A DNA stretch of 64,000 nucleotides, taken from NCBI GenBank assembly GCA_963696825.1, contig CAVOLN010000003.1:45130-109129 (forward strand), in the 5' to 3' direction. Shown one piece after another: positions 1 through 64,000 of this stretch (the first letter of the stretch is position 1; each line of letters opens with the position of its first letter). The notes under the pieces were generated by a model. It ran no database searches, was not told the origin of the DNA, and saw only the letters and a list, made by a program, of their open reading frames with translations. This DNA is from Terriglobia bacterium. GTDB lineage: Bacteria > Acidobacteriota > Terriglobia > Terriglobales > Acidobacteriaceae. Both the position numbers and the translations under genes were made by a program.

Positions 1-483
1 GGACTACTACGCGCGACGGACAACGCGTTTCGAAGCTGGCCTCCTACACCGGCCGCGGTTCGCTGGAAGGCTGGCTGCGGACCGTGATGGCGCAGGAATT
101 TGTGAACCGCTATCGCCGCCAGCGCCGGCTGGTGAGCCTGGAGGAAGAGAGCGAAGACGGCAAGGAGTTTGCCGCGAAGGACCCGGAGCCGGCCATCGCG
201 GTCGATCTCGCGAGTCGAGGCTGCAACCGATGAAGTCTTGTCCGCGCTGCCGGCAGAGGATCGATTCATTCTGGCATCTTATTATCTGGACAATCGCACA
301 CTGGCGGAGATCGCGCGCATGCTCGCGGTGCATGAGTCAACCATCAGCCGCAAGCTCGATAAACTGGTCAAGTCCCTGCGCAAGCAGATTGTGCTGCGGC
401 TGGAACGAAAGGGAATGAGCCGTCGTCAGGCGGAGGAAGCTTTGCAGGTGGATGTACGTGACTTGCGAGTTGAATATCCGTGA
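1..483 (+). CDS. ECF-type sigma-70 factor, 3' portion (5' end outside window); one apparent 1-nt frameshift near 215
   Basis: Frame 3 reads ...GSLEGWLRTVMAQEFVNRYRRQRR and stops at 231. Frame 1 continues LSALPAEDRFILASYYLDNRTLAEIARMLAVHESTISRKL (region 4 HTH) to the stop at 483. Confidence 0.8.
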
Positions 484-660
484 CCGCCTGGCGCAAGAAC
501 CGGTTCCGCCGGCGTTCTCTGATAAGAAGGGAGAAATTCGGGTGCCAGATGTCGGACCCCGGACGTCGGGCCTCGGACCTCCGGGCTGAGGAACGGGGAA
601 GGGCAGGGCTAATCGTGCCGCAAATCCGGCACGGCCGGCAAGAACAAGAACTAAAAGAGA

Positions 661-1986
661 ATGGAGCAACTTCCCAAAATCGTGCAACAGCGACTGCAGG
701 CAACTGCCAAGGCCGGAGTCCATCCCGATCCCGATCTGCTGACGGCCTTTGCCGAGAAGTCGTTGAACCAGCGCGAGCGTGCCCAGGTACTGCAACACCT
801 GGGGCAGTGCGCCGATTGCCGGAATGTCGTATCGCTGTCGATGCCGGAGGCCGACCTGGCGCCCTCCACAATCCCTGGGAGATCCCGGTGGTTGACGTGG
901 CCTGTGTTGCGCTGGGGTGCACTGGCGGCATGCGTCGTGGTGGTCAGCGCGGCGGTAACGCTCCACTATGAGCAACGGCCCGATCTGGCCCCGGCGGTCG
1001 CGGAAAAATCTTCCTCAGCCTCACCCGCACCCGCAGCACCCTCGAACCTCGCGGTAGAAAGCGACGCCTCCAATGCTCCGCGTGAAAAACTGGCGGCAAA
1101 AATCCCGCCGCCGTCGCCATTCCAGCCTGATCGCGACTTTGCCGGCAAGTTGGCCAAGCAACGTGAAGAAACGCCCACAAGGTCCGCCGCCGCCGCGTCT
1201 ACGTTTGACCAGCTGACATCGAACGAACAAGCCATCGGAGGTTTAAAAGCAAATTCGAACATCAACCACCAGGTGGCAAACAATCGGCAGGCAGATGCCA
1301 ACCTGTTCAAGAGCGCAAATAAGCCTTTCCAGGTCACGGGACAACTGGCCGACTCCGCACCCGCAGCTTCTCCAGCCCCAAAGACACCTGAAGCCAGCGT
1401 GCGCAACGACAACAATCTTGCTAACGGCGTTACCGAAACCGTGACCGTTCAGGCCGAGCCTCCGTCAATCGCGGCCCAAAGCGCTGAGCGAAAGGCAAAG
1501 GACGAATCGCCCAGAAACGAAACCAGCGCTGGAACGACGGCGGCAATGTCGTCGGGAGATCGCAAAGCGGACACGGCATCCGCCGAAATTACCGCGGGAG
1601 CATACGGCGGGCGGGTTCGGGCCAATGCGTTGCCGCCTAAAATTCCGGCCACGTCGCGCTGGACTTTGTCTCCCGCGGGCGCTGTGCAGCGCTCTCTGGA
1701 TTCCGGCAAGACCTGGCAGACAATTGCAGTGGCCAGCAACGTCGTCTTCCGCGCAATCGCGGCCAATGATTCTGACGTGTGGGCTGGCGGCTCGGCCGGC
1801 GCTCTCTATCACTCTGCCGACGCGGGCCAACACTGGACTCAGGTCAATGTATCCCTGGACGGCAAGCCCTTGACGGCGGACATCATCAGAGTCGAGTTCA
1901 GCGACTCTCAGCACGGCCGCCTGGTCACCAGCAACGATGAAACCTGGGTCACCAGCGACGGGGGAGCGAGCTGGCATAGCGAATAA
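661..1986 (+). CDS. Anti-sigma factor (zf-HC2) with one TM segment and a C-terminal BNR/Ycf48-like repeat domain
   Basis: Sits directly downstream of the ECF sigma gene. Has the HLGQCADCRN motif, a hydrophobic WPVLRWGALAACVVVVSAAV segment, and Asp-box-like SLDSGKTWQ, SADAGQHWTQ and TSDGGASW near the C-terminus. Confidence 0.7.
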   Translation: MEQLPKIVQQRLQATAKAGVHPDPDLLTAFAEKSLNQRERAQVLQHLGQCADCRNVVSLSMPEADLAPSTIPGRSRWLTWPVLRWGALAACVVVVSAAVTLHYEQRPDLAPAVAEKSSSASPAPAAPSNLAVESDASNAPREKLAAKIPPPSPFQPDRDFAGKLAKQREETPTRSAAAASTFDQLTSNEQAIGGLKANSNINHQVANNRQADANLFKSANKPFQVTGQLADSAPAASPAPKTPEASVRNDNNLANGVTETVTVQAEPPSIAAQSAERKAKDESPRNETSAGTTAAMSSGDRKADTASAEITAGAYGGRVRANALPPKIPATSRWTLSPAGAVQRSLDSGKTWQTIAVASNVVFRAIAANDSDVWAGGSAGALYHSADAGQHWTQVNVSLDGKPLTADIIRVEFSDSQHGRLVTSNDETWVTSDGGASWHSE

Positions 1987-2310
1987 TTGCCAGAACACGA
2001 CCCTGACCCGGGGCCCTTCCCGAAAAAGGACATTCCCGCAACCGAACTTCACCCCTTTCTGCGCGAGCGCCCCGCAGCCAGTGCTGCGTGGGACTATTGT
2101 CAGAAAGGGTTTCCCCATAACTATCAACGCTTTAGTTTGGATGTGAATCGTCAATCATCCAATCGATCACAATTACCTGATAATGACCCACGGCATTATT
2201 CCCATTGTGACCGCCAGAGATTCGTGTGTTACCAAAGTGACGTTTACAGCAGTGTGGGGCGGGCCTAGTATCCATTTCGTGGTTTGGCAGTTCTGGGGGA
2301 GGGCTGCCGG

Positions 2311-2345
2311 GCGTCCTGAGCTGAAAAGTTCAGGACGTTTTTTTT
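2311..2345 (+). terminator. Rho-independent terminator (orphan; no convincing CDS upstream)
   Basis: 10-bp stem cgtcctgagc/gttcaggacg (one G-U pair), 6-nt loop, followed by a run of 8 T (2338-2345). Confidence 0.6.
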
Positions 2346-2529
2346 GTGCTCGCAGGACGGGGACGAAAACTGGAAAGGCCGCAAGTTGCCTCGGAGCCAA
2401 CCCTATAGCTGCCTTTGCGACTTCTCCTGCTACGATGCATCCAATACGGTGTTACGATACAGCAGCCAGATTGGCTGATCGCGCGTCCCGAATCTGCATG
2501 TTCGCAGCGGGCGGCGCACCGGAGGAAAA

Positions 2530-2859: not shown

Positions 2860-2860
2860 G

Positions 2861-6558: not shown

Positions 6559-7976
6559 CTACTGGGAGGTCAGGGCTTTCATGAACTGGTAATAAAAATC
6601 CACCGCGCGATAAAACGAATCTACCGGGATGCGCTCATCTTTGCCGTGGGCGCGGATATCATCGCGATCGATGGCCTCGCCGGAAATACAGTATGTCGGC
6701 AACCCTGCGGCGTTGGTGTAAACGCCGTCGGAGGCGCCGGTCGCCATGTCTGGAATCACCGGCAGCCCCGGCCACACGCTGGCCACGACTTTTTCCAGCG
6801 GCTGAAACACGTCCGGGCGCAGCGGCGGAGGCACAAATGACTTGCGGTTGGTTACGCCGCCAATCCCGCCCACCTCGCGCACCGAAATCTTGGGATCAGC
6901 GAAAACTTTTTCCAGCTCCTGCCTGATTTCCTCCGTCGAATGCCCCGGCACGATGCGGCAGTTCACGTTGGCCTTGCGCAGTTTGCGGAAGCGCATTGTT
7001 GGCGTGGCCGGCATTCAGTCGCGTGGCAACGCAGGTGGTGTGCATGATCGAGTTGTCAATCGAGTCCTGCGACAATCGCGCCACTGCCGCCATATCAGGA
7101 GGATTCTTCAGAATCGCCTGCATGTCGGCGGCGCGCTGTCCGGTCGCGACTTTCGACATGCGCTCGTAATAGGCGCGGGTGATATTGGTCAGCTCAAACT
7201 GAAACTGGTAGCGCTCCAGCCGGGCCAGTCCGTCGGCCAGATGGTAGATCGCGTTGTCCGGCTTGGGCAGCGAACTGTGTCCGCCGGGATTAGTGACCGT
7301 TAGTTCGTAGTCGGAGTAGAGTTTTTCCGATGCGTCCACTGACATGAACTGCGGTTTGCCGTGTTCCGAGAGAATCCCGCCGCCATCGTGGTTAATCACG
7401 AATTCGGCGTCGATAAGTTCGCGGTTGTTTCTCAGACAGCCAGTCCACACCGTTCGACGTGCCGCCTTCCTCGTCCGCGGTGAGCGCCAGAATGATGTCG
7501 CGGTCCGGCACGTAGCCTTCCTTCTTGAACCGGATCAGCGTCGTGACCATGATGGCGTCGCCGTCTTTCATGTCCTGGGTGCCGCGACCGTAGTAGTAGC
7601 CGTCTTTTTCGACGAACTGGAACGGATCGGTGGTCCAGTCTTCGCGCCGCGCTTCGACCACGTCGAGATGTCCGATGAGCAGCACCGGCTTGTGCTTCCC
7701 GCTGCCGTGGAAGCGGACCACGAGATTCTTCTTGCGGTCGTTTGGTCCGAGGATGTGAAGGTCGCTCTCGGAAAATCCGGCATCGCGGAAGCGCTGTGCC
7801 ATAGCCTCGGCGGCGGTGGAGACGTTGCCAACAGAGTCTGTGGTGTTGATTTCGATGAGCTGTTTGAAAATATCGTGCGAAAGCTGGCGGGTGGCATCGT
7901 CAATCTGAGCCTGCGAGTGCGAACAAAAAAGTGCAATAAAAAGGGCGAACGACAAAAACCATGTGCAGGTTCTCAA
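6559..7976 (-). CDS. Secreted M20/M25/M40 family metallopeptidase; two apparent frameshifts (~7435, ~7000)
   Basis: Signal peptide MRTCTWFLSFALFIALFCSHSQAQ. Also LLIGHLDVV, GRGTQDMKDG and LTADEEGG motifs. The gene is split over ORFs 7392-7976, 6896-7450 and 6559-7014. Confidence 0.8.
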
Positions 7977-8505: not shown

Positions 8506-9213
8506 GTGGCTAGTGAACCGTCCTGCCCGGGTGCTTCTATGTTCAGATTTGCTGTTCCTATCTTCCTGTTGTTTCTGGCTTTGATTGTGGGCACGGTGGC
8601 ATACACTGCAGGGAACGCGTCCGCAGCCGCGGTTCCTGGCCCGGCAACCGATGCCTCGCTGGCGTCGAAGCCGGGCGAGCAGACTGCCGTGATTGCGGGG
8701 GGATGCTTTTGGGGCATCCAGGCTGTCTTTCAACATGTAAAGGGAGTGATAAGCGCGACCTCCGGGTACTCAGGCGGAGAAGCCAAGACCGCCGAATACG
8801 AGTTGGTCAGCACCGGCGAAACCGGGCATGCGGAATCGGTGAAGATTACCTATGACCCATCGCAGATCACGTATGGTGAACTGCTGCGGGTGTTCTTCTC
8901 AGTAGCCCACGATCCCACGCAGTTGAACCGGCAGGGGCCTGATAGCGGTACTCAGTACCGGTCGGTGATTTTCTACGGCACTGACGAGCAGAAAAAGGTC
9001 GCCGAAGCATATATCGCGCAGCTTGACCAGGCCAAAGTGTTTGCGCGTCCGATTGTGACCCGAGTGGTGCCGCTGAAGGCGTTCTATCCGGCTGAGGCCT
9101 ATCATCAGAACTATGCGACTTTGCATCCGGATCAGCCATACATTGTTTTTAACGATGCCCCGAAGGTGGCGCACCTGCGGCAGGACTTTCCGCAGCTTTA
9201 CACCGGCAAGTAG
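8506..9213 (+). CDS. msrA: Peptide-methionine (S)-S-oxide reductase with N-terminal signal/anchor
   Basis: GGCFWGIQAVFQHVKGVISATSGYSGG motif; hydrophobic N-terminus MFRFAVPIFLLFLALIVG. Confidence 0.9.
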   Translation: MASEPSCPGASMFRFAVPIFLLFLALIVGTVAYTAGNASAAAVPGPATDASLASKPGEQTAVIAGGCFWGIQAVFQHVKGVISATSGYSGGEAKTAEYELVSTGETGHAESVKITYDPSQITYGELLRVFFSVAHDPTQLNRQGPDSGTQYRSVIFYGTDEQKKVAEAYIAQLDQAKVFARPIVTRVVPLKAFYPAEAYHQNYATLHPDQPYIVFNDAPKVAHLRQDFPQLYTGK

Positions 9214-9307
9214 GGGAAAGCAGATTCCTCACCGCTAAAGCGGTTCGGAATGACCACGCTGGGATAGGACACGGTGAAGAGTTGGGAATAAGTAAGAAGG
9301 TATCAAG

Positions 9308-9919
9308 GTGCCTATGTTCGACTCAGAGTTAGATCGCGACCATTCTTCGGTGAATGTGAGGCGGCGCGCTTTTCTGGGAGTGTCTGTATCCGCGCTTGCC
9401 GGAGTGGCTTTGTGGTCGCTGCGCAAGCCAAGGCTGATCGAGGCGGCGATGCCGAAGGGCGATCCCGGAGAAGTCACGATTGTGCAATTTTCAGATTCCG
9501 GGCAGCGTTTGCAAAAAGTCCGGGTGCCGAAAGTGGTCAAGAGCGACGACGAGTGGCACAAGCAGCTCTCTCCCGGAGAATTTGATATCACGCGCCGTGC
9601 CGATACTGAAATTGCTTTTAGCGGAAAGTATTGGGATTTGCACGATAAGGGTCTCTACCGCTGCATATGCTGTGACAATGCGCTGTTCAGCTCGGCGACC
9701 AAATTCGATTCTGGCACCGGCTGGCCCAGTTTCTGGGAGCCGATCGCGCCGGAAAATGTGCGCACCATCCGGGACGCAAGTTACGGCATGGTCAGGAACG
9801 CGGTTGCCTGCACCCTGTGTGACGCCCACCTGGGGCACGTCTTCGACGACGGGCCGCAGCCGACGGGCTTGCGATATTGTATGAATTCGGCCTCTCTCAA
9901 ATTCATAAAGCAGGCTTGA
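9308..9919 (+). CDS. msrB: Peptide-methionine (R)-S-oxide reductase with Tat-like signal
   Basis: [15 protein letters not shown] twin-arginine motif, CxxC...CxxC zinc site ([25 protein letters not shown]), GTGWPSFW. Confidence 0.9.
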
Positions 9920-9947
9920 TATAGCGGTTACTCTGCCGGAGAAAGCC

Positions 9948-10397
9948 ATGAATTCATCCCTTCCGTCTTTTCGCGCGCCCAGCGCCGGCGAGCGTATTTT
10001 CAACCGGGTTTTCGGATTTGTGGTCGGGCTGGGATGGGGCTTTTCGTACAACTATCTGTTGCAAGTTCGCGGCCGCAAGAGCGGCCAGGTTTACTCGACC
10101 CCGATTGATCTGCTGGAACTGAGTGGAAAGCGCTTTCTGGTGGCTCCTCGTGGCCGGACGCAGTGGGTGCGTAACGCGGAGGCGGCAGGAGAAATTACCC
10201 TCAAGCGAGGAAAGCTGCAGCAGAAGTTCAAGCTGCGAGTCCTATCGGATCAGGAGAAGCCGGAAATACTGAAAGGTTATCTGGATCAGTTCAAACGGGA
10301 AGTACAAAGATACTTTCCTGTGCCTGCCGGGTCCCCGGTAGACGCATTTCGAGGTTTGCTCGATAGGTATCCGGCGTTTGAATTGATTCCTGCTTGA
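9948..10397 (+). CDS. Nitroreductase/deazaflavin-dependent oxidoreductase family (DUF385-like) protein
   Basis: 149 aa. The pattern RGRKSGQVYSTPIDLLELSGKRFLVAPRGRTQWVRNAEAAGEITL resembles the split beta-barrel DUF385 family, from my recollection of that family. Confidence 0.55.
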   Translation: MNSSLPSFRAPSAGERIFNRVFGFVVGLGWGFSYNYLLQVRGRKSGQVYSTPIDLLELSGKRFLVAPRGRTQWVRNAEAAGEITLKRGKLQQKFKLRVLSDQEKPEILKGYLDQFKREVQRYFPVPAGSPVDAFRGLLDRYPAFELIPA

Positions 10398-10452
10398 GGG
10401 ATGCAAGTGCCGCTTTTCGCGTGAGGTTCTCGACGGATACTCACCCAAATTA

Positions 10453-10614
10453 TTGTCATCCTGAGGAAGCAGAGCCCTTCGCTGCGCGAAGGGCTTCCGA
10501 CGAAGGACCTGTGCATTCGGACCACGGCGAGTTCTGCGAGCACGCGCAATACATGGGTCCTTTGCTTGCTTCCGCCCTGCTTCGCAGAGCGGAAGACTGC
10601 GCTCAGGATGACAA
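10453..10614. mobile_element. MITE-like palindromic element: two inverted GTCATCCTGAG-type units
   Basis: Terminal inverted repeats ttgtcatcctgag (10453-10465) / ctcaggatgacaa (10602-10614). The left unit has an internal hairpin agcccttcgctgcgcgaagggct followed by cgaaggacc. There is no coding capacity. Confidence 0.6.
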
Positions 10615-10652
10615 CGGTGTGTTGTTTCCGGACGCGCTCTCCAATCCAAAAA

Positions 10653-11423
10653 TTATTCCAGCACTTTGTCGTCCAGCTTTTTTCTTCCCCAGTCGGCCGC
10701 GGCCTGAACGAACGCCATGACCACTGGATGGGGTTTGCCGGGCTGGGAAGAAAGCTGGGGCTGGAACAGGGTTGCGACGTAAAAGCGGTGAGTGGGGGAT
10801 TCGATTGCGCGAACCTCTCCCAGCGGGCCGCGAGCGACCACGGGGAAGCCTGCTTCCATGGCAGCCCATTCGTATTCGGGATTGACTTCGAAGTTGCAGA
10901 AGAATTCTTCGGTGACGGTGTCCTGCCCGTAGAAGGACTGCAGGTACGATCCGGGGCGCAGCCGGATTTCGGGGATCGAACCGGAAAGCTTGGGCGCACC
11001 CTTGGCGCGAGTGGGGACGGCGCAAGCGACCGGATAGATGACGATATTTTTTGATCCGGAATTGTTCTCCGCGGTATCCGCGTCTTTGATCCCCAGCACG
11101 TTACGCACGCACTCGATCAGTGCGTACTGGAAGCCGCCACAGGTACCGAGGAAAGGCCAGTCGCGTGTCCGGGCGAATTCGATGCCTTTCAGCATGCCGT
11201 CCAGACTCTTGTAGGGACTGCCCGGCGCGGCCCAGAGCCCATCAAAACTTTCCAGTTTCTTCTCGGCGCCGGGCGCAAGCACGCTGGCGGTCGCGATCCA
11301 CTCCGCTTCGACCGGTGTGTTCAGTTGGGCGGAGACATGCTGCAATGACTTTTCGACAGCGGGAAGGGTCGGAGACTTCGGATCGTAGTCCCCGAGAATT
11401 CCTATGCGGACGGGATCGCTCAC
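10653..11423 (-). CDS. Stand-alone class-I glutamine amidotransferase, CTP-synthase C-terminal-domain-like
   Basis: 256 aa. GTCGGFQ nucleophile elbow and an FQPQ-type C-terminal region (ATLFQPQLSS) typical of the PyrG GATase domain. Confidence 0.7.
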   Translation of the reverse strand: MSDPVRIGILGDYDPKSPTLPAVEKSLQHVSAQLNTPVEAEWIATASVLAPGAEKKLESFDGLWAAPGSPYKSLDGMLKGIEFARTRDWPFLGTCGGFQYALIECVRNVLGIKDADTAENNSGSKNIVIYPVACAVPTRAKGAPKLSGSIPEIRLRPGSYLQSFYGQDTVTEEFFCNFEVNPEYEWAAMEAGFPVVARGPLGEVRAIESPTHRFYVATLFQPQLSSQPGKPHPVVMAFVQAAADWGRKKLDDKVLE

Positions 11424-11508
11424 TGGGCCATTTTATATGGAGAGTTCGGGAACCGCGGCAACGGGAGGTGAGAAGGCTGGTGCCGCTGGGGCCAGCAAGA
11501 ACCATTAA

Positions 11509-11577
11509 CTACCAAGGACACGAAGGATCACAAAGGAATCTGAAATCCTTCGTGAAACTTCGTGTCCCTGGTGGTTG
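11509..11577. repeat. Inverted repeat (hairpin), CACRRAGGA 9-mer dialect (J)
   Basis: accaaggacacgaaggatcacaaaggaat...tccttcgtgaaacttcgtgtccctggtgg, located between the kynU stop and the GATase start. Confidence 0.7.
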
Positions 11578-11600
11578 ATGCTTTTTCCTGCGTGGCACGC

Positions 11601-12770
11601 CTACACCTTTGATGCTACCGGGCGCACTCTCAGGATTTCATCGACCGCTGTGATCGCGGTCTTGAGCTCTTCATCTCTCGTGTAGAAATGCGGAGCCATG
11701 CGCACGCCGGCTTTGGGTCGATAGTCGACCAAAATGTCGCGCTTGAGGAGTTCGCGGCAGACCTGTTCGGCTTCCGGCATTTCGATGGAAACGGTTCCTC
11801 CGCGCTCCCCTGCTTTCCTGGGCGTATTTACGCGCCATCCGTGCTGTTCCGCCATGGCGATCAAGCGGGAAGTTTGCCGCTGCGATTTTTCTCGAATTCT
11901 CGCAATGCCTATTTCGGCGATGATCTTCAGTCCGGGGCGGGCCGCTTCCAGCGATGGAATGTGTGACGTGCCGTTCATGAAGCGGAATGGGGGCTCGGCG
12001 TAACGCGTCGGCCCCACCTCGAATCCGAACGCGTTCTGGTGCGCGAACCAGCCCGTGAATTTCGGCTGCAGCACCTTCCCGAGATCCGGACGAACATAGA
12101 GATAGGCCACCCCCGGGCCGCCGCACAGCCATTTCAAAACACCCCCACAGGCGAAATCGACGTTCAACGCTTGCACATTCACCGGCACCGTGCCTAAGGA
12201 TTGAAAGGTATCAAGCACCACATGGGCGCCTACTTTGTGGGCCTTTTCGATGATGGCTTTCGCATCCTGGATGTAGGAGCTGCGGAAGATTACGTGCGAG
12301 ACCGGAACCAGCAGGGTCTGTTCATCGATAGCGTCCAGCAACCTGTCGAGAGGAACGGTGATCCCGTCGTCCGTCTTTACCATGTGCACGCGAGCGCCGT
12401 AGGCCTGTTGCGCCTCCCAGAAATACATCACGGAAGGGAAATTCATGTCGCTGTATACGACTTTGTTGCGCTTGCCGGAGAAATCAAAACAGGAAGCCAC
12501 CACGGCTTGGCAGGTGGTGACATTCTGATGGGTCGAAACTGAACTTGCAGGCGCGTTCATCAGGGCGCCAATCTCGTCGCCGACCTGCGCGGCCAGCATC
12601 CACCAGCGTTCTTCCCAGGCACGCACGCCGCGCGTCGCCCAGGTGTCGGCATAGCCTTTCAGGGCGTCATAGACGCCTTTCGGCATCGCGCCCAGCGAAT
12701 TGCTGATGAGATAGGTGGTGCGCTCCAGAATGGGGAAGTTTGAACGATAGCGGAAAAGCTCATCGGCCAT
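11601..12770 (-). CDS. kynU: Kynureninase-family PLP-dependent enzyme (class V aminotransferase fold)
   Basis: Start chosen at MADELFRYRSNFPILERTTYLISNSLGAMP. Has the DFACGGVLKWLCGGPG lysine region and FYTRDEEL near the C-terminus. The ORF track extends to 13091 but that upstream part is not protein-like. Confidence 0.75.
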   Translation of the reverse strand: MADELFRYRSNFPILERTTYLISNSLGAMPKGVYDALKGYADTWATRGVRAWEERWWMLAAQVGDEIGALMNAPASSVSTHQNVTTCQAVVASCFDFSGKRNKVVYSDMNFPSVMYFWEAQQAYGARVHMVKTDDGITVPLDRLLDAIDEQTLLVPVSHVIFRSSYIQDAKAIIEKAHKVGAHVVLDTFQSLGTVPVNVQALNVDFACGGVLKWLCGGPGVAYLYVRPDLGKVLQPKFTGWFAHQNAFGFEVGPTRYAEPPFRFMNGTSHIPSLEAARPGLKIIAEIGIARIREKSQRQTSRLIAMAEQHGWRVNTPRKAGERGGTVSIEMPEAEQVCRELLKRDILVDYRPKAGVRMAPHFYTRDEELKTAITAVDEILRVRPVASKV

Positions 12771-12905
12771 ATGATGTATTGTACTGTGCGTCCGGGCTTG
12801 TATACTTCGGCAGGATGAGCAAATCAGTCCGACAACTCCGCGGCATCTCAGCGCATCCAAAGTTTGAATTTTAAGCGTGTCTTTGTATTTTTGGACAGGA
12901 GAGCA

Positions 12906-13025
12906 ATGATAGCCATGAAAGCAATCAGAAACATTCTGGGCACGGCGGGCCTGCTTTACGCGGGGTATGTGATCCTCATGAGCGTGAAAGATGTTCGCCG
13001 CTACATTCGAATCAGCACAATGTAA
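12906..13025 (+). CDS. Small membrane protein (39 aa), not in the ORF track
   Basis: AGGAGA at 12896-12901, then ATG. MIAMKAIRNILGTAGLLYAGYVILMSVKDVRRYIRISTM has one TM helix plus a basic ...RRYIRISTM tail. It resembles a short conserved family ending ...RYL(K/R)IRSM, from memory and unverified. Confidence 0.45.
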   Translation: MIAMKAIRNILGTAGLLYAGYVILMSVKDVRRYIRISTM

Positions 13026-13030
13026 TAGTG

Positions 13031-13117
13031 GCAGTTTGGGGTGGTGGACATACTGAAAGCGGTCTGCAGTCTTCAGTCGCAGGCAAATCAAACCACCGAC
13101 GAACGACGACTAAACTG
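13031..13117. repeat. Imperfect inverted repeat, GTCGTCR-like dialect
   Basis: cagtttggggtggtgg ... ctgcagtcttcagtcgcagg ... ccaccgacgaacgacgactaaactg, located between the convergent small ORF and the permease. Confidence 0.4.
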
Positions 13118-13136
13118 TCCGGCGCACAGATGAGAA

Positions 13137-14477: not shown

Positions 14478-14617
14478 GCACCTATACCAGAAAGTCTTTT
14501 CTCGCCAAAGGCATATTCTTTTTGTGACTTTGGTAATCCCGACGTGTGCCTACTTCGTTGCCGCCCCGGAAACCGGATTCTAAAATCGCAGTGGGTTACT
14601 CCGCACATTACCCTCTC

Positions 14618-23445: not shown

Positions 23446-25645
<2,200 letters not shown>

Positions 25646-31204: not shown

Positions 31205-31867
<663 letters not shown>

Positions 31868-33830: not shown

Positions 33831-33852
33831 GAATTCCGAAGGAACGGAAGCA

Positions 33853-36503: not shown

Positions 36504-36504
36504 A

Positions 36505-36614: not shown

Positions 36615-36628
36615 TGAAATGAGAATCA

Positions 36629-39264: not shown

Positions 39265-39405
39265 ATGTAATGTGGGCGCGAGCGTCCCGCTCGTGCGGCG
39301 TAGTGGCAGAGCTGGTTTTTGAGGATAGTGTGAAGTTTGAGTCAGGCTCGCGGTCGTCGTGCTGGTGGAGTGAAATTGGAATCGGGAGGCGGGAGGACCA
39401 GTTCG

Positions 39406-40127: not shown

Positions 40128-40146
40128 GCGGTCAAGCAGTTGAATC

Positions 40147-45640: not shown

Positions 45641-47674
<2,034 letters not shown>

Positions 47675-48140: not shown

Positions 48141-48634
48141 ATGGCACTTGAGATCGACAAGGTGCGCGAAATTGCGGAGCGGGTGGCGGCCTCCAGCGGG
48201 CTGGAGGTGGTGGAAGTGGAGTTGCGCGGCGGCGGCAAAGCTCGCATGCTCCGCATCGTGATCGACAAGCCTGCCGGCGTCACGCACGAGGACTGCGCCA
48301 ATCTCAGCCGGGAAGTCGGGCACGATCCTCGATGTCGAGGACGCGATTCCCGGTTCGTACACGCTGGAAGTTTCTTCGCCGGGGCTGGATCGCAAGTTAA
48401 TTCGTCCAGCGGATTACGAGCGCTTCACCGGAAGCCGGGTGAAGTTGACGACGCAGCAACCGGTGAACGGCAACCGTCACTTTGAAGGCCGGCTGGAGAG
48501 TTTTCAGCACGGTCGTCTGACGCTGGACCTGAGCGCGGCCAGAAAGAAGCGCCGTCCGGAAGAAGGCGCCGCAGCAAAAGCTGGAAATCGATCTGGCGAA
48601 CGTCGAGAAGGCGAATCTGGTGCCGGAGATTTAG
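48141..48634 (+). CDS. rimP: Ribosome maturation factor RimP; two apparent 1-nt insertions (~48320, ~48575)
   Basis: ...LEVVEVELRGGGKARMLRIVIDKPAGVTHEDCANLSREVG / ILDVEDAIPGSYTLEVSSPGLDRKL...RLTLDL / QKLEIDLANVEKANLVPEI. Confidence 0.88.
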
Positions 48635-50421: not shown

Positions 50422-53320
50422 ATGAGTAAGATTCGAATCAACGATCTGGCAAGGGAGCTGGAAGTTAAAAGCAAATCGATTCTCGATGTACTTCCGGAGG
50501 TTGGAGTCACCGAGAAGAAGAGCCATTCCAGTTCTCTCGAAGACCATGAAGCGGACAAGGTGCGCGCGCAGTTCCGCGCTGCCAGCCAGGCGCAGACTTC
50601 GAGCCGGTCCTCGCGCCCGGGCCGCGCCGAAGCGGACGAAATCAAGACCAAGATCGATCTTTCCCACATTTCCAAGCCTGGCGACGCGCTGAAAGCCATC
50701 ATCAGCAAGCAACAAGGACCCGCGGCCGCAGCCGCCCCGCCGTCGGCTACAGCGCCGCCGGTCGAAACCAAGCCCGTGGCCGCGCCCGCCCCGCCCGCGG
50801 CGAAACCTCCAGCTCCGAAGCCGCCGACTCCTCCGCCGCTGGCGGCGCCAAAATTTGTGGTTCCGACTGCAACTCCGCGACCGACATTTACGGCTCCCGC
50901 GGCTCCGGCTGCCGCCTCAGTCCGCGGCCCCGGTGGCTCCGGTTGCGCCGCGGCCTGCAGTGCCGCCGCCGCGGCGCCAGCCGCACACGCCGTCCACAAC
51001 ACCAGCTGCCGCGCCACCGCGACCCGCCGCGCCTCCGGCAGCCGCCGTTCACGGCGGGCCGGCCAGTCGAGCCGAGCGGCGCCGGCGGCTCCGCAAGCGC
51101 CTCCGCCACGAATGATCGTTCCGCAGACCGGGCCGCGTCCGGTGTACAAGGCGCCTTTGCGACCAGCGCCGCCTGCAGGTTTATCGACCGCGCCTGCGGG
51201 TGCGCGTCCCGCTCCAGGACGTCCGGTGCCAGGCCAGCCGATTTTCCAGCGCCCGCGCCCGGGCGCCCCAACCAATCGTCCGCCATTGCGCCCGGGCGAG
51301 CGCCGGCCCATGCATCCGACGCGCCAGTCGCCCACCGGCACGCGCCCACTGGGCGTTGGGCCGGGAGCTGTGCCTCCGGGCCCGGCGGCACGGCCCGGCA
51401 GCCGGCCGGGTGCGCCATCGCGCCGGCCGGGACAGCGCTATGTTCCGCGTGGCGTGAAGGAAGGCCCGATGAAGGGCTACACGCCGCCGCCGCGGCTGTC
51501 GCTCTCCAATGAGCCGCAGCCGATCACGCGCAGCATCACCATCACGGAAGGCATCAGCGTCAAAGATCTGGCGGAGAAGCTGGGGCTTCGCGCCAAGGAT
51601 TTGATCGCCCGCCTGCTGGCCCGCGGCGTGTTTGCCACCATCAACCAGACGCTCGACACCGAACTGGCCAGCGAGATGGCGCGTTTCTTCGGAGCCGACA
51701 CCAACGTGATCACCTTCGAAGAGCAGGCTGCCAAGGAAGTTTCCGAAGCTGCCGCGGGTGAAGAAGGCGACTCCCACGGAAGGCGTGCCGCGTCCGCCGG
51801 TGGTCACCATCATGGGCCACGTGGATCACGGCAAGACCACGCTGCTCGATTCCATCCGCCTGACCAACGTGGCCGGAGGCGAAGCCGGCGGCATCACGCA
51901 GCACATCGGCGCTTACAAGGTAACGATTCTGGACAAGGAGTCTCCCGCCTACGGCCGCCAGATCGTGTTTCTCGACACGCCCGGTCACGAAGCCTTTACC
52001 CGCATGCGTGCCCGCGGCGCCAAGGCCACCGACATCGTCGTGCTGGTCGTGGCCGCCGACGACGGCGTGATGCCGCAGACGCTCGAAGCCATCGATCACG
52101 CCCACGCCGCGGAAGTGCCGATCATTGTCGCGGTGAACAAGATCGACAAGCCGGATGCGTTGCCGGACCGAGTGAAGAAGCAGCTGGCCGATCGCGGTCT
52201 GATGCCGGAAGACTGGGGCGGAACCACGGTGTTCGTCGACGTCTCGGCCAAGCAGAAGACCAATCTGAACCTGCTGATGGAAATGATCTGCCTGGTGGCC
52301 GACCTGCAGGAATTGAAGGCTACGCCCGATCGTCCTGCAACCGGCGTGGTTCTCGAAGCCAAGCTGGATCGCGGTCGCGGACCCGTGGCCACCGTGCTGG
52401 TGCAGAACGGCACCTTGCGCACCGGCGACAACTTCGTCGTCGGCAACGTGTACGGCAAGGTGCGCGCCATGTTCGACGATCGCGGCGCGCAGCTGGAAAC
52501 CGCTCCTCCTTCCACTCCGGTCGAGATTCTGGGTATGGAAGGATTGCCGCAGGCCGGCGATCAGTTCGTGGTGGTCGCCGATCGCGACAAAGCGCGCGGC
52601 ATTTCCGAATACCGCGAACAGAAAGCTCGCGAAGCCACGCTGGCCAAGAGTTCCCGCGTTTCGCTGGAAGGCCTGGCGGAGCAGCTGAAGACTGCCGGCA
52701 CCAAGGAACTGAACATCATTCTGAAAGCCGACGTGGGCGGATCGGTGGAAGTGCTGAGCGATCTGCTGACCAAGCTTTCGAACGACAAGGTGCGGCTGAA
52801 GGTTCTGCGCTCCGGCGTAGGCGCCATCACCGAGTCCGACGTGCTGCTGGCTTCGGCTTCGAACGCCATCATCATCGGATTCAACGTGCGTCCGGAGCGC
52901 AAGGCGCAGGAGCTGGCGGAGCAGGAGAAGGTCGATATCCGGCTGCACTCGATCATTTACGAGTTGCAGGACGAGATCAAGCGCGCCATGACCGGCCTGC
53001 TCGAGCCGACCATCAAGGAAACCTACCAGGGCCGCGCCCAGGTGAAGGAGACCTTCCGCATCCCGAAGGTCGGCACGATTGCGGGATGCTCGGTCACCGA
53101 TGGCATCATCAAGCGCGACTCCGAAGTCCGCCTGCTGCGCGACAACAACGTCGTCTTCACGGGCAAGGTCGGCTCGCTGCGGCGCTTCAAGGACGATGCC
53201 AGCGAAGTGCGCAACGGCATGGAGTGCGGCATCTCGATCGCGAACTACGGCGACATCAAAGTCGGCGACGTGATCGAAGCCTTCGTGACCGAGAAGGTTG
53301 CCGCGGAAGCCATAGCTTGA
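50422..53320 (+). CDS. infB: Translation initiation factor IF-2; at least one (probably three) frame breaks (~50925?, ~51090?, ~51770)
   Basis: N-terminal [22 protein letters not shown], a Pro/Ala-rich linker, a GTPase domain with [25 protein letters not shown] and NKIDK, and an intact C-terminal domain. Confidence 0.93.
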
Positions 53321-53835: not shown

Positions 53836-53870
53836 CTGATATTCTCATTCGTTTTACTCAAGAGGTGGGT

Positions 53871-54235
53871 GTGGAGAAGCGCGGCGCGAAATATCATCGG
53901 GAGCGCCTGGGAGAGGCCCTGCGGGAGGAGATTGAAACCATCGTGGAAGGGCGAGCTGGGCGATCCCGCGCATCGGGCTGGTGAGCGTGACCAGCGTGGT
54001 GTTGGCGGAGGATTCGCGCTCGGCGCAAGTGTTCGTGACCCTGGACGGAGATGACGAAGAAGCCGAGCGTTCGCTGGAAGGCCTGACCGCGGCAGTCGGA
54101 TTTATCCGTCGCGAGGTGGCCGAGAATTTGCACCTGCGTCGTCCTCCGGAATTGTATTTTCACCTGGACCGCTCCGACCAATACGGCGCCAGAATCGACG
54201 AATTGCTAGGCCGCACGCGGAAGAAGAAAAAATAG
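53871..54235 (+). CDS. rbfA: Ribosome-binding factor A; two apparent 1-nt insertions (~53950, ~53968)
   Basis: GTG start. ...YHRERLGEALREEIETIVEG / ELGDP / RIGLVSVTSVVLAEDSRSAQVFV...LRRPPELYFHLD. Confidence 0.88.
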
Positions 54236-54296: not shown

Positions 54297-55249
54297 ATGT
54301 TGAAGGAAGTTCTCAAGCACATCGAGCAGCGTCAACCGGTTTGTGCTGACCTCGCACGCCCGGCCGGATGGCGATGCCATCGGTTCGGCGCTGGCTTGCT
54401 GCCAGATCCTGCGCGCGATGGGCAAGCATGCCGACGTCGTTCTGCGCGATGGCGTGCCGCGCATTTACCAGCCGCTGCCTTTTGCGCGAGAAGTTGTCCA
54501 GGCGGAGCGCGTGAACGGCGACTACGAAGCCGCCATCATCCTGGAGTGCGACAGCATCCAGCGCACCCGGCTGCGAGGGACTGGAGAACCAGTTTCCTGA
54601 TCAGCATCGATCACCACCTGAGCGGACGACCGTTTGCCCAGGTGAACTGGATCGATCCCAAGGCCGTGGCCACTGCCGAAATGGTGTACCGGCTGGCGCG
54701 CGAGGCTGGCGTCACGATTTCCCCAGAGATTGCGACCTGCCTCTACACTGCCGTTCTCACGGATACCGGCTCGTTCATGTTCGAAGGGACGAACGAGCAC
54801 ACCTTCGCACTGGCTCGCGAGTTGGTGCTGGCCGGCGCCGACCCGGCGCACTGCGCGCGCAACATTTACTTCGGACATTCCACCGCGAAGATGCGACTGC
54901 TGGGCGCGGCGCTTTCCAACCTGCACCGCGAAGGCCCTCTGGCCTGGATCTCGGTGAGCCAGGAACAGATGCAGCGCTGCCACGCCAAGGAAGAAGACTG
55001 CGAAGGGCTGGTGAATTACGCGCTTTCCATGCAGGGTGTTGAAGTGGCGCTGTTCTTCCGCGAGCTTCCCGATGGCCGCTTCCGCGTGAGCCTGCGCAGC
55101 AAGGGCAAACTGAATGTCGCAGCGGTGGCCGAACGCTTTGGCGGCGGCGGACACCAATGCGCCAGCGGTTGCGCGCTCGATGGACCCCTTGCCGGTCGCG
55201 GCGGCGCGAATTCTCGACGGAACTGCGGCTTGGTCCCTCCGTACAATAA
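54297..55249 (+). CDS. nrnA: DHH/DHHA1 family phosphoesterase (NrnA-like); about four frame breaks (~54335, ~54590, ~55190, ~55217)
   Basis: ...LTSHARPDGDAIGSALA..., ...ISIDHHL..., ...TDTGSF..., ...GGGGHQCASGC.... The C-terminus is restored as ...ILDELRLGPSVQ by removing one G. Confidence 0.8.
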
Positions 55250-55370
55250 AATCCTCTTGGAGACTGCTGCTGGCGGACAGTTTCTTCAGCTTGCAGCGAA
55301 CATTCGATCCAATCCTGATTCAGACTGCAGATTTCGAATATGAGCTCGAGCCCCGCGAGCCCGACATCGA

Positions 55371-57010
55371 ATGCTGCAGCGTCGCATGGTGCCGCGGCCG
55401 CTTACGGATGGCTGCTGCTCGCCGGCTTTCTGCGGATTCCTGTTTTTCTTCGGTCTCGCATACTTTGGCCTGCTCGGAGCGGACGAGCCGCGCTACGCGC
55501 AGGTGGCGCGGGAAATGCTCGCGCGTCACGACTGGATCACGCCCACACTGGGTGGCAAGCCCTGGCTTGAGAAGCCGGCTCTCTACTACTGGCAGACCAT
55601 GCTCGCCTACAGCATTTTCGGCGTCAGCGACTGGGCTGCACGTCTGCCTTCCGCGGTGGATGCCACGCTGATGGTGGTTGCCGTCTATCTTTTCCTGCGG
55701 CGCTTTCGCTCCACCTCGGGCTGTTCAGATTCTCGATGGCGCGCTGATGACAGCCTCCGCCAGCGGCGTGATTGGCTTCGCGCGCGCCGCGTCGACGGAC
55801 ATGCCGCTCGCTGCCATGTTCACCATCGCCATGCTGGCCTGGTATGCGTGGTACGAGAGCGCCAGCAAGCGTTACCTGGCGCTGTTCTACATCTTCCTGG
55901 GACTGGCCACACTCGCCAAAGGACCGGTGGCACCCTTTCTCGCGGCGGTCATCGTCGTACTTTTTGCCGCGGCGAAGGGCGACTACCGGCTCATGGCGCG
56001 CACCTGTTGGCTTCCTGGCATCGCATTGTTCGGTGTGGTCGCGCTTCCCTGGTACATCGCGGTCCAGCTGAGGAATCCGGAATTCTTTCGGGTATTCATT
56101 CTTCGAGCACAATCTGGCACGCTTTGGTAGGGATCTCTATCACCACACGCAGCCGTTCTGGTATTACCTGCCGGTCGTTCTGCTTGCACTTGTGCCGTGG
56201 ACGATGTTTGTGATCGCGGCCTTGGTCGAGAGCGTTCGCGTCATGGTGGACGGAAAAGAAGAGAGATGTTCCAGTCAGAAGATGCTTTGCCTGCATTTCT
56301 TATGATCTGGCTCATCGTTCCGATCGTATTCTTTTCATTTTCGGCATCGAAGCTGCCCGGCTACATTCTGCCCGCCTTGCCTGCCGGAACGTTGCTGCTG
56401 GCGGAATATGTGCGACGCCATGTGGCCGATTGACGACAGCGCCCGAGCCTTGCTCTGATTGTGATGCATTCAATCGTCGCGGCACTGCCGGTTGTTGCGG
56501 CGCTGATGATGCAATACATCGTTTTTCAGCACACGCTGCCGTGGGGACGGGCGACTGCGATCTCATCCGGATTTGCTGCCGTGCTGGCGATCGGGATCGT
56601 AGCTGACTTTGCGCCGCCAGCTCGGTCTTCGCGTGCTCCGCTTCGTCACCCTGGTTCCAGTGGTGCTGGCGGTGGGTGCAGTACTGCGACTGGGCGCTCC
56701 TGCTCTCGATGCCACACTCTCCGCGCGCCCGCTGTCTCAGGAAATCAGCCGCGTGGACAACCGATCTCTTCCGCTTGCGATTCTGCGACTGCCGCGGGAG
56801 ACCGAATATGGTCTCGCACTTCTATCGCAATCAGAAGATTGCGCGTTACGAACTGGGACGAATTCCGACGGCGAGCATCTGTTGGTCACTCGCGAAGGAT
56901 GGCAGAAAAATATCGCCAAGTGGACGACAGGCCGGCGAGTCACATATCTGGGAAGTTTCGCGCCGCAGGGCGTGGACTATTACTGGGTGGCGGGGAAGAG
57001 CAGCAATTAG
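55371..57010 (+). CDS. ArnT/PMT-like (GT39/GT83-type) membrane glycosyltransferase; about eight frame breaks
   Basis: ...GADEPRYAQVAREMLARHDWITPTLGGKPWLEKPALYYW... then hydrophobic segments alternating among all three frames (ORFs 55371-, 55678-, 56197-, 56461-, 56609-). Confidence 0.7.
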
Positions 57011-57206: not shown

Positions 57207-58195
57207 ATGAGCGCGCTTAGCAAGCCGGAACCCTCCAGGAGCCTCCAGGTGGAGATTCTCGACCTCAGACACTTTTCCTCCGTCGATCTGCGTCCCCTGC
57301 TGGAGGACGAGGTCCGGGAATGGGCGCGCCTGCTTTCCTGGGACTACAGCGGCTCGGCGGAAATGATCCTGCGCTACGTGGATGCCAAAATCCTGCCCGG
57401 CTATGCCGCCGTCGATCGCGGACGAATCGTCGGCTACGCCTTTTTTGTCTACGAAGGCAGCAAGGGCGTGATTGGAGATCTCTTCGTCGCCAACGGCGGC
57501 CGCCTGCCCGATCCGCACGAGGTGGAGTCGCGGCTGCTGCTGCATGTGATCGAGACGTTGCAGCAGTCGCCGGGAATTCATCGCGTCGAAGCGCAATTGC
57601 TGGTGCACGAAGCCGGCGTGGTCGCGCGGCCATTTGTGGAGCAGGGATTTCAGCGGCATCCGCGGCTCTTCATGGTGCTGCCGCTGAGCGATGCGCTGAA
57701 GACCGCGCCGCCAATGGATCCCGAAATCGAGATCCGGCGCTGGGCGGAGCACGGATTACCAGCCGGCCGCCGCCGTGATCACCACCGCCTATCGCGGCCA
57801 CGTCGATTCCGAGATCAACGATCAATACCGCACTCTGAGCGGGTCGCTGCGTTTCCTGAACAACATCGTGCGCTTTCCGGGATGCGGCACATTCGATCCC
57901 GAGGGATCGTTCGTCGCGGTGCACAAGCGGGCGCGAAGCCTGGTCGGACTGATCCTGTGCTCGCGCGTGCGCCACGATGTTGGACACGTCACCCAGGTGT
58001 GCGTGCTGCCGGAATACCGCTCGCGCGGACTTGGGCGAGTTGTTGATCGCAGCCACCGCCGGGAACCTTCGCCAGCGAAATTTCTCGCTGCTGTCGCTCA
58101 CCGTGACCGAGGCGAACGCACGCGCCGTGACGCTCTATCAACGCCTGGGATTCGATACCAAGCGAGTGTTTGATGCATTCGTGTGGGAAGGGTAG
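57207..58195 (+). CDS. GNAT family N-acetyltransferase (two GNAT-like halves); two frame breaks (~57760, ~58035)
   Basis: ...VTQVCVLPEYRSRGLG / ELLIAATAGNLRQRNFSLLSLTVTEANARAVTLYQRLGF.... Confidence 0.75.
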
Positions 58196-58956: not shown

Positions 58957-60127
58957 TCAGATGATTACGATTTCACTTTGAATTTTACCTGTTACTTCCG
59001 CCGCCTTGGGCCTGACCAGCATGTTTACTTCGCTGCGCACTCCGAATTCCGGCAGATAAATGCCGGGCTCGATGGAAAAACAGTGAGTTGGGCAGGATGC
59101 GGCGCTCGTCGTGAATTTCCAGGTCGTCCATGTTGGCGCCGTTGGCGTGAACCTCGGTGCCGATGGAATGCCCGGTGCGATGAATGAAATACTGCTCGAA
59201 GCCGGCGTTCTTGATGTAATCCCGCACCGCGCGGTCCACTTCCCATCCCGCGATCGGCCTTGCCGGCGCTCACGCCTTCGATGCACCGTTTTCACTCCGA
59301 CGTCGCGCGCCTGGCGAACGATCTCGAAGACTTCCCGCATGCGATCGGAGGGAGACTTTCCCACAAAACCCGTCCAGGTGATGTCGTAGTATACGGCCCC
59401 CGGCGTGTTCTTCTTGGCCCAGACATCGAGCAGCACGAAATCGCCTTCGCGAATCGGTTTTGAAGTTTCCGGGATGCGGCTCGTAGTGCGGATTGCCGCT
59501 GTTGGCGTTGACCGCGACCACCGGCGGATCATCGGTGACCAGATTCTCGCGGCGGAAGGCTTCCAGAACCACTGCTGCATTTCGTATTCGTGGGTTCCGC
59601 CGTTGCGCACGCGCCGGCCAATCTCCTGGAAAGCGGCGGCGGTGATGGCGTCAATCGCATCGCGCGCCGCGAAGTGAGTCTTGATCTGCTCGTCCGTCAA
59701 GGTGGCTTCAAACTGCGCCACCAGGTCGCAGGAGCTGACCACGTTCTTGCCCAGGCCGCGAATCAGATCGATGGTGCCGCCATCCACCAGCGAAATCGTG
59801 AAGACCAGATTGTTGGGCGAATACTGCATGGCGATGTCGCGATGATTGGCGAGCATCGCTTTCATCTGGTCGAACAATTCCTGCCAGCCGGAATACTTGC
59901 GCTTGCTGCCCGGGAAGCGAGTCGAGATGGCCGGGTTCGATCTTGTGAACCAGTTTTACCGGTTCGCCGCTGGCCGGAATCAGGTAGAACCAGCGCCGCG
60001 TGACCATCTGACCCGCGGGCAAGCCCAGCACGCGGTAGGCAATGGGATCGCGATGATGATGATCGTAAAAGAGCCAGGCGTCGATGTTGCGCTCGCGGAG
60101 CGCGGCTTGTATGGCGGAAAGATCCAT
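58957..60127 (-). CDS. M24 family metallopeptidase (Xaa-Pro aminopeptidase-like); about seven frame breaks
   Basis: Fragments in all frames: ...IDAWLFYDHHHRDP..., ...REGDFVLLDVWAK..., ...YFIHRTGHSIGTEVHA..., ...CFSIEPGIYLPEFGVRSEVN.... Confidence 0.75.
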
Positions 60128-60213
60128 GGGCAAACAACTATTCTAAACAAGGGCAGGGTTTTGAGCGAATCGGGAGAGAACGGAGTGGCCCAGTTTGGGG
60201 CAAATCAGGCGCT

Positions 60214-61831: not shown

Positions 61832-61835
61832 CGAT

Positions 61836-62119: not shown

Positions 62120-62128
62120 CAAACCGAT

Positions 62129-62907
62129 TTACCACGGAGGACACAGAGGACACGGAGGCAACCCGCGGCCTCCTCTGAACCCGGTGTCTACCATGGTTAG
62201 TCTTTGCTTCCTTTCGCCAAAGATTGCCGTTCCCACCCGCACGCAGGTCGAGCCTTCTTCAATCGCAACTTCGAAGTCGTGCGACATGCCCATGGAAAGC
62301 ACGTCCATGCGTTACTCGCCGGCAGATTCCGAGCCAGCGATTCTGGTCACGCAGTTCGCGCAGCTTGCGAAAGTAAGGCCGCGCCTTCTGCGGATCTTCG
62401 GTGAACGGCGGAATGGTCATCAAGCCGCGAAATTCCAGGTGTTCCAACCGCGGCGCGGCCCGCAGCAAGTTCTTCCAGTTCAGCGGATTCTGAAGACAGG
62501 CCGCTCTTGGCTGATTCCCCACCGACATTGATTTCGATCAAGGCGCGAGTTTCCTGCCAAGCTTGGCGGGCGGAGGCATTCAGTTTTTCCGCCAGCCGCA
62601 GCGAATCGACCGAATCGATCGCGTAAAAAGCTCAACTGCCCTGGCGGCCTTGTTGGTTTGCAGATGGCCGATCATGTGCCATTCGACATCTTTCAAGTCG
62701 GCAAGGGTTCCGGCTTTGCCGGCAAATTCCTGGACGCGGTTTTCGCCGAAGACCCGAAGCCCGGCTGCGTACGCTTCGCGGATACGCTCCGGCGGGAAAG
62801 TCTTGCTCACCGCCATGAGCGTGATTTCTTCGGGATTTCGTCCAGCCCGGCGTGCAGCAGTCGGCAATCTGCGCGCGCACCCAGGCGATATTTTCTGCGA
62901 TGGACAT
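62129..62907 (-). CDS. yggS: YggS family pyridoxal-phosphate homeostasis protein; about five frame breaks; 3' tail read through a repeat
   Basis: [14 protein letters not shown]..., ...[33 protein letters not shown]..., ...[11 protein letters not shown]..., ...[30 protein letters not shown].... Confidence 0.8.
62131..62173. repeat. 9-mer repeat tract, CACRGAGGA dialect (J), with terminal ggaggc/gcctcc hairpin
   Basis: accacggaggacacagaggacacggaggcaacccgcggcctcc. Confidence 0.7.
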
Positions 62908-62919
62908 GCAAAACAGTAA

Positions 62920-62952
62920 ACCACGAAGGACACTAAGGATCACGAAGGAAAG
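62920..62952. repeat. 9-mer repeat tract, CACGAAGGA dialect (J)
   Basis: accacgaaggacactaaggatcacgaaggaaag, between the OPT stop and the yggS start. Confidence 0.7.
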
Positions 62953-62984
62953 CCGGCGAGCGCCCGACGCCTGCCACCGACGGT

Positions 62985-64000
62985 CTACATCATTGCTGTC
63001 GGCGGCGCTGGCTCGTTCGGATCGCCAGCGCTCGAGAGCGGCAGGCAGATCATCAAGGCCGCGAGCCCGATCATCACGGCGAGGCCGACAAGATATGACG
63101 GGTGGTTGAAAATCTGTGGTCTGGCCCATGCCGGAGCAAACTGCAATCCAGCCCAAACCAGTCCCAGTACGGCTTCTCCGGCGATCAGTCCGGAAGCGGT
63201 GAGGACGCCGGCATTCTCCACCCGCGCCTTTTGCGCCTCGTTGAAGCCGCGCCGCTCCGCCACCCAGTCTGCCGACTGAGCGGAAAACTCCGCCCAGGAA
63301 AATCGCAAACGTTGTTTCGAACGGCAGATACATGCCCACCGCCACCAGCATGGGACTGCGTGACCTGCATCATGATCATCGCGATGCCAAACAGAATGCC
63401 GACCACCACCAGCGGCCACGGCATATCTCCGCCGACGATTCCTTGGCCAGCGTCGCCATCAGTCCGGCTTGCGGCGCGGAAAGTTGACGGTCGCCAAATC
63501 CGATTCCGCCGGCCTTGATGTTGCCTTCGTGCAGCAGCATCAGCGGAAAGTACATCACCAGGCTGGCCACCACCACCGCGATCAGCTCCGCGATCTGAAT
63601 GTTGCGCGGCGTGCCGCCCAGGATGTAGCCAACTTTGAAGTCCTGCAGCAGTTCGCCGGCGACCGACGAGGAAACGCATACCACCGCCGCCACACCCAGC
63701 ACCGCTGCCACGCCGGAGTTCCCGGACACGCCAAGCGACACCATCAGCAGCGCCGCGATGATCAAGCGTCGAAAGGGTCAAACCGGAAACCGGATTGTTG
63801 GATGATCCGATCATTCCGACCAGGTTGCCCGAGACCGTGGCGAAGAAGAAGCCGACGATCAGCATGACCACGGCCGCGAGAACCGCGGGCCAGACCAGTC
63901 CTGAAATGTGGATATAAAGAAAGCACATCAGCACGAACATCAGCGCGATCAGACCGAAGACCGTCTTCGAAGCTCATGTAGCGCTCGGTGCGCGACAAGC
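62985..64000 (-). CDS. OPT superfamily oligopeptide transporter, 3' portion (5' end outside window); at least four frame breaks
   Basis: ...FATVSGNLVGMIGSSNNPVSGLTLSTL / IIAALLMVSLGV...DFKVGYILGGTPRNIQIAELI... / GIVGGDMPWPLVVVGILFGIAM / MLVAVGMYLPFETTFAIFLGG / ...ENAGVLTASGLIAGEAVLG.... Confidence 0.75.

Follow-up and report, generated by a model that had tools for sequence, protein, structure and literature searches.

Does a stretch of DNA in which half of the comparable genes are interrupted by one-base changes of reading frame, those for EF-G and several ribosomal proteins included, describe a living cell or an unfinished assembly? The question is raised by C3:45130-109129 of genome assembly G000, a stretch of 64,000 nucleotides that we call the window and number from its first base. 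The assembly comprises 4,787,814 bases in 7 contigs (58.7% G+C, zero N), and its completeness is estimated at 53.14% with 2.58% contamination, where same-genus genomes of like size reach 94-100%. An earlier inspection of the letters and their translations, hereafter the sequence-only reading, had counted about 70 frame breaks and attributed them to insertion-biased consensus error in an under-polished long-read assembly. Our results indicate that the window carries about 75 or more one-letter frame breaks, indispensable genes included. Judged from sequence comparisons, these breaks are in all likelihood residual errors of an unpolished long-read consensus and not the biology of the organism.

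Frame breaks in the window

The window was compared with the collinear regions of three genomes at 70-89% DNA identity: G003 (100% complete, 3 contigs), G012 (95%) and G006 (89%). G003 and G012 serve as clean relatives; G006 is itself indel-rich. None of our claims draws on G007 or G017, two unpublished genomes. For the protein-level count, 75 open reading frames (ORFs) of G003 were picked by third-position substitution bias and aligned to the window with a frameshift-aware protein-to-DNA procedure. Greedy longest-ORF gene calling, which chose antisense ORFs within the ribosomal operon, was dropped in favor of this criterion. The count was restricted to the 59 genes with an amino acid identity of at least 0.7, after removal of 4 events also present in G012 and of 31 events in genes below 0.7 identity. 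Relative to its G003 orthologue, the frame is interrupted in 30 of the 59 comparable genes, with 61 insertions and 13 deletions of one base each; these 74 events give 1.65 per kb over 44,826 coding bases. Both the number of breaks previously claimed and their excess of insertions (about 29:6 by eye) are thereby confirmed, and the proposed comparison with a complete relative shows that the breaks are absent from G003. An event of G006 is found no more than 6 residues away from 13 of the 74, and setting these aside leaves 61 events (51 insertions, 10 deletions) in 26 genes. As a control, the same frameshift-aware procedure applied to G012 returned 10 insertions and 4 deletions in 71 genes, mostly N-terminal, and applied to G006 it returned 66 insertions and 15 deletions in 71 genes.

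A four-way DNA alignment of the window with the collinear regions of G003, G012 and G006, in which indels were counted in well-aligned context, confirmed the breaks at the level of DNA. Against G003 and G012 jointly, 409 gap events were counted in the window, of which 125 are in good context. The latter include 75 insertions and 21 deletions of one base, 6 insertions and 3 deletions of two bases, and 1 insertion and 8 deletions of three bases. Private one-nucleotide events (insertions/deletions) number 80/26 in the window, 10/16 in G003, 7/8 in G012 and 47/20 in G006.

Every gene that the sequence-only reading had listed as broken is indeed broken. The pieces were named with NCBIfam profiles, each piece matching part of its profile only, as EF-G, L3, L4, S3, L24, L15, SecY, L17, IMP dehydrogenase, RimP, NusA, IF-2, RbfA and adenylate kinase. 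The wrong-frame ORF of rpmD matches no NCBIfam family, and we take the gene to be rpmD from the appearance of its translation. The named essential genes are the following.

23446..25597, plus strand: fusA (EF-G), one +1 insertion near 25094-25096; the fragment 23446-25095 matches TIGR00484 positions 2-528 of 691
27475..28201, plus strand: rplC (L3), one +1 insertion near 27496-27497, no homopolymer
28264..29000, plus strand: rplD (L4), five +1 events at 28681/2, 28688, 28872/3, 28899/900 and 28922, three of the five near G006 events
31204..31864, plus strand: rpsC (S3), one +1 insertion near 31488-31489; the fragment matches TIGR01009 positions 1-95 of 212
33390..33732, plus strand: rplX (L24), one break, net +1, near 33408-33412
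37141..37360, plus strand: presumed rpmD (L30), one break, +1, near 37170; start and body in different frames
37435..37867, plus strand: rplO (L15), one +1 insertion near 37686-37687
37874..39261, plus strand: secY, two +1 insertions at 38458/9 and 39102-39106; its two pieces, which lie in different frames, match TIGR00967 (414 positions) at 1-179 and 204-383
39370..40133, plus strand: adk (adenylate kinase), two +1 insertions 10 nucleotides apart at 39758/60 and 39768/70
44423..44936, plus strand: rplQ (L17), one +1 insertion near 44672; a soil contig is without this letter (place 44671)
46170..47674, minus strand: guaB (IMP dehydrogenase), two +1 insertions at 46687/8 and 46428-46431
48141..48631, plus strand: rimP, two +1 insertions at 48317/8 and 48573/4
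48773..50310, plus strand: nusA, three breaks: a deletion in a G-run at 49047-49050, an insertion at 50038/9 and a deletion at ~50070
50422..53317, plus strand: infB (IF-2), four +1 insertions at 50915/7, 51041, 51078 and 51769/70, all within the less conserved N-terminal half
53865..54232, plus strand: rbfA, two +1 insertions at 53947/9 and 53964/5, missing from 4/4 covering soil contigs

The finer details given earlier for single sites fared unequally. The insertion in rplC (~27497) does lie outside a homopolymer and a G is indeed missing from the G-run of nusA (~49050). The "ggG" homopolymer reported for fusA is an error, since GGG is also found in the relatives and the extra letter is the T just before it (~25094).

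The observation that the protein runs on seamlessly in the neighboring frame also holds. Amino acid identity to G003 is 0.924 (5006/5417) in unbroken genes, 0.918 (2838/3091) upstream of the first break and 0.889 (5476/6158) downstream of it, in the shifted frames. Only 7 in-frame stops accompany the 74 frameshifts: five fall in two doubtful antisense-type ORFs, a sixth stands at residue 9 of an ORF that was probably extended too far, and the seventh is common to G006. The true reading frame is kept by purifying selection across the breaks, with no sign of decay.

Placement and distribution of the indels

The inserted letters show little relation to their surroundings. Among the 75 good-context insertions, 44 (0.59) adjoin no identical base, as compared to 0.535 of simulated random insertions, and those that make a run of two, three or four number 27, 3 and 1, respectively (simulated fractions 0.291, 0.129 and 0.037), so that a single one of the 75 falls in a run of 4 or more. 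The inserted bases (21 A, 13 C, 27 G and 14 T) are near the composition of the window, and the spacing between 21.9 and 60.2 kb is as in a random process (coefficient of variation, 0.99). Non-coding DNA, at 3.51 events per kb, is hit more often than coding DNA, at 1.61. No sequence motif was found around 50 coding insertions (top position-wise chi-square of 9.6 with 3 degrees of freedom over 17 positions), and 40-45 different 4-mers stand at these 50 sites. Given this lack of a motif, the diversity of 4-mers and the scarcity of runs, there is no slippery site, fixed quadruplet or homopolymer tract at the insertions.

The indels are private to the G000 assembly, being absent from G003 and G012 and mostly absent from G010, the closest relative, which is 92.8% identical over 17 kb. 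Of 45 one-base events of the window at 25.7-42.9 kb, taken with no context filter, 31 are absent from G010, and the 14 shared ones lie mostly between genes as read off their coordinates; G010 has 56 one-base events of its own in the 17 kb compared. Contigs from four soil or plant metagenome runs belong to relatives, at ~90-95% identity, and do not represent the source organism. We draw no claim on habitat or strain from these four runs. Short-read soil contigs from a metagenome scan, used as further relatives, cover 23 of the 48 events at 48-64 kb. The window state is missing from all covering contigs for 13 of these and from most for 18, and there is 1 event for which no covering contig lacks it. 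Among the 12 of 151 comparison rows listed for the four runs, their contigs omit the extra letters at 44671, 47687, 53952 and 53964 and add letters at 49047/49050, in agreement with the events counted here.

The indel load spans the genome and is not confined to one locus. We sampled 91 ORFs with a minimum length of 250 amino acids from eight further 20-kb regions of G003 and found a clear orthologue in G000 for 33 of them. Thirty-two of these 33 orthologues, on contigs C1, C2, C6 and C7, are broken by at least one frame event. The genes on these other contigs carry 117 insertions vs 13 deletions, at 2.9-3.4 per kb.

Two same-genus species representatives, G006 (C21) and G010 (C28), are likewise indel-rich. 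Completeness is only 58-69% for G009-G011 despite their low number of contigs (20-40), because of which we consider that the same artefact probably affects several genomes of the genus.

Probable consensus error and its rivals

Our interpretation of the breaks as consensus errors follows from indels that are private, genome-wide, random in place and base, and blind to coding, while the true frames are fully conserved. It also follows from the splitting of indispensable genes, which would be lethal if real: those for EF-G, IF-2, SecY, NusA, L3, L4, S3, L15, L17, L24, RimP, RbfA, Adk and IMP dehydrogenase are all affected. The indels are blind to function as well, essential genes and non-coding DNA both being struck, though ribosomal RNA (rRNA) genes and conserved stretches are under-hit. 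All indirect tests support the cause that the sequence-only reading had proposed. We suggest that noisy single-molecule long reads of modest depth, most likely from a metagenome that was then binned, would have yielded a consensus that was never adequately polished and that retained mostly spurious extra letters. Reads of related organisms may have added depth at conserved stretches and rRNA genes during consensus building or polishing and so left fewer errors there.

This interpretation is consistent with published accounts of long-read errors. According to PMC12007338, frameshifts from long-read assembly errors pseudogenise genes: as in G000, single-base indels cut genes into pieces in adjacent frames, raise the number of apparent pseudogenes and lower completeness estimates, and are found by comparison with related genomes. 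In an example described there, less than 0.05% of the genome was concerned and 23% of genes were pseudogenes, whereas G000 is far denser, with ~1.7-3 events per kb and nearly every long gene hit. The platform may be nearer PacBio continuous long reads than nanopore, a guess prompted by the random, homopolymer-independent and insertion-biased character of the indels. The part of PMC4719071 that deals with PacBio RS errors describes indels ~15 times as frequent as substitutions, random, and independent of homopolymer length and of GC content, which resembles G000, although that profile applies to raw reads and G000 is a consensus. Nanopore consensus errors also produce frameshifts in draft genomes and metagenome bins. 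However, in the same sources, early nanopore reads have ~2 times more deletions than insertions (PMC4719071) and nanopore consensus errors are typically homopolymer-linked (PMC12007338), whereas in G000 insertions outnumber deletions ~5-9:1 and 44 of 75 touch no identical base.

Several observations nevertheless weigh against this interpretation. The errors were deduced and not seen: the stretch was not found among source reads in public runs, the best of which holds 0.14 of the sampled words, the runs compared hold only relatives, and a metagenome scan returned no same-species contig, the best match having 92% amino acid identity. The platform is a guess, the indels here not being homopolymer-linked as typical nanopore consensus errors are; that raw PacBio reads are insertion-biased is general background. 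Indel density is uneven (dispersion chi-square of 114 with 58 degrees of freedom, p 1.6e-5). About 6 kb (8533..14591), single-copy in the genome, are without a frame event where ~10 would be expected at the mean rate of the window. The five genes of this stretch, with amino acid identities of 0.75-0.88, code for an MsrB-type reductase, a CTP-synthase-C-terminal-related protein, an aminotransferase of class V, an amino-acid permease and one more protein. Across 6.6 kb of rRNA genes, 11-20 insertions would be expected at protein-gene rates, yet private one-base insertions number 1-2 in the 3.6-kb 23S gene, 0 in one 16S copy and 1 in the other. A comparison of transfer RNA (tRNA) genes, limited to six kinds, all identical, is too small to bear weight. 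Moreover, the event rate drops with conservation (rho -0.37 vs amino acid identity), and events become fewer as the depth of look-alike contigs, summed over the four soil or plant metagenomes, increases (rho -0.71, p 1e-5; 12 events in 15 high-depth bins vs 34 in 15 low-depth bins).

Selection could also yield the conservation gradient, and part of it may reflect a detection bias in less conserved DNA. Our guess is that the gradient corresponds to a depth-dependent quality of the consensus, to which reads of relatives would add depth at conserved DNA. Selection explains it poorly, given that a break at residue 7 of L3 or at residue 163 of IF-2 would be no less lethal than a break in a conserved core.

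An artefact of another origin is improbable, if the least so of the rivals; it would stem either from a consensus built across several related strains or species binned together or from hybrid polishing that was uneven. The two 16S copies of the bin, with 17 differing sites and different species as their nearest relatives, would fit such a mixture, as would an indel density that is strongly uneven and lowest where the DNA of relatives is most alike, and the co-occurrence of many relatives in soil metagenomes. On the contrary, strain mixes give substitutions and real intergenic indels, not random letters inside conserved codons, and the contamination estimate is low. This explanation overlaps with that of an unpolished consensus and leaves the biology unchanged.

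Less room is left for indels that are real and recent, as the mark of wholesale genome decay in a newly host-restricted or dying lineage, a scenario to which we grant very little probability. The breaks are present in the deposited sequence, and indels are scarce or absent in rRNA genes and in the small number of tRNA genes that could be compared, and fewer in conserved stretches, as selection might leave them. However, at least eight genes for ribosomal proteins are split, as are fusA, infB, secY and nusA, in addition to 32 of 33 random long genes. No cell could live with those genes broken, and an early frameshift in infB or rplC would kill even at a weakly conserved site. Real gene death would further bring nonsense mutations, drift and an excess of deletions, towards which bacterial mutation is biased. 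Instead, downstream identity is 0.889 vs 0.918 upstream, nonsense substitutions are almost lacking beside the 74 frameshifts, none of the 7 stops being credible in a sound gene, and insertions exceed deletions both in the window (61:13) and elsewhere (117:13). Genomes undergoing host-restricted decay, such as those of Mycobacterium leprae and Sodalis, share with G000 many frameshifted genes, but in these the translation apparatus is intact, nonsense mutations and deletions are abundant and dead genes drift, none of which is observed in G000.

Weakest of all, and hardly conceivable, is a correction of real indels during expression by programmed +1 frameshifting, four-base decoding, transcriptional slippage or nucleotide-deleting RNA editing: a protein that runs on in the next frame at every break and RNA genes that are largely spared would suit it, but the sites share no motif or four-letter word and no slippery tracts, the inserted letter can be any of the four bases and there are 13 deletions besides, indels are at least as dense between genes, and the sites are not conserved in relatives. 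Equally remote is its variant of a living cell with clean rRNA and tRNA in which a site-specific nucleotide-removing or frame-tolerant mechanism, acting after transcription and without a visible signal, would restore the frames of nearly every protein gene, the extra letters being truly present in the DNA.

Use of the genome, other broken loci and RNA genes

As a finding, the breaks in G000 are an assembly artefact and bring no biological novelty. Their consequences for users of the genome are considerable, since G000 is the stand-in for its species in a reference set. About half of the genes in the window are unreadable by ordinary gene callers, as are nearly all of the long genes sampled elsewhere in the assembly. 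Any truncation, fusion, short novel ORF, overlapping gene, missing marker or low completeness reported from G000 should be presumed an error until shown otherwise. The same presumption applies to the same-genus genomes G006 and G010, and probably to G009 and G011. Any use of the genome needs to be preceded by re-polishing or by frameshift-aware translation. Because rRNA and conserved stretches are cleaner, error density in such bins is non-uniform, and a clean marker gene says little on the rest.

Beyond the named essential genes, one-base events affect the following loci of the window.

6562..7955, minus strand: gene of the M20-peptidase family, two +1 insertions at 7436 and 6973/4
14558..17195, plus strand: gene for a TPR-repeat protein, six frame events (14592-16451)
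36500..36620, no strand: intergenic one-base insertions at 36519 and 36611
43073, 43197, 50315 and 50411: further intergenic one-base insertions
55239..57007, plus strand: membrane glycosyltransferase-like gene, eight frame events
57207..58192, plus strand: gene without a family name, two +1 insertions at 57753 and 58029/30, missing from 5/5 covering soil contigs
58960..60133, minus strand: peptidase-like gene, six frame events at 59914, 59564, 59473, 59283, 59255 and 59083
62201..62997, minus strand: gene without a family name, eight frame events

One-base differences from G003 and G012 at 28682, 32892-32896 and 33841-33851 are common to G006 and/or G010. They probably reflect genuine divergence between lineages or oddities of the reference genomes, and not errors of the G000 assembly.

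The two different 16S genes lie at contig ends outside the window (G000:C2:1080-2595, minus strand; G000:C7:158-1674, plus strand). With one gap in addition to their 17 differing sites, they are 98.9% identical; the nearest relative of one is G001 (99.4%), and those of the other are G002 (99.8%) and G012 (99.7%). The G000 bin may mix two species, or its rRNA consensus may have drawn on reads of relatives. The length of 23S genes ranges from 2966 to 3599 nucleotides among five same-genus genomes (loci L029-L033), as compared to a model of 2925 positions, and the G000 gene (C7:2829-6427, L033) is the longest of the five, which suggests intervening sequences or insertions.

ARAGORN reports 47 tRNA genes in the G000 genome, one of them for tRNA-SeC, and none for tRNA-Phe or tRNA-Asn. 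In the window, the gene at 10656-11423 (minus strand) matches NF004836, CTP synthase C-terminal region-related (seleno)protein, with 256.1 bits for a cut-off of 260 bits.

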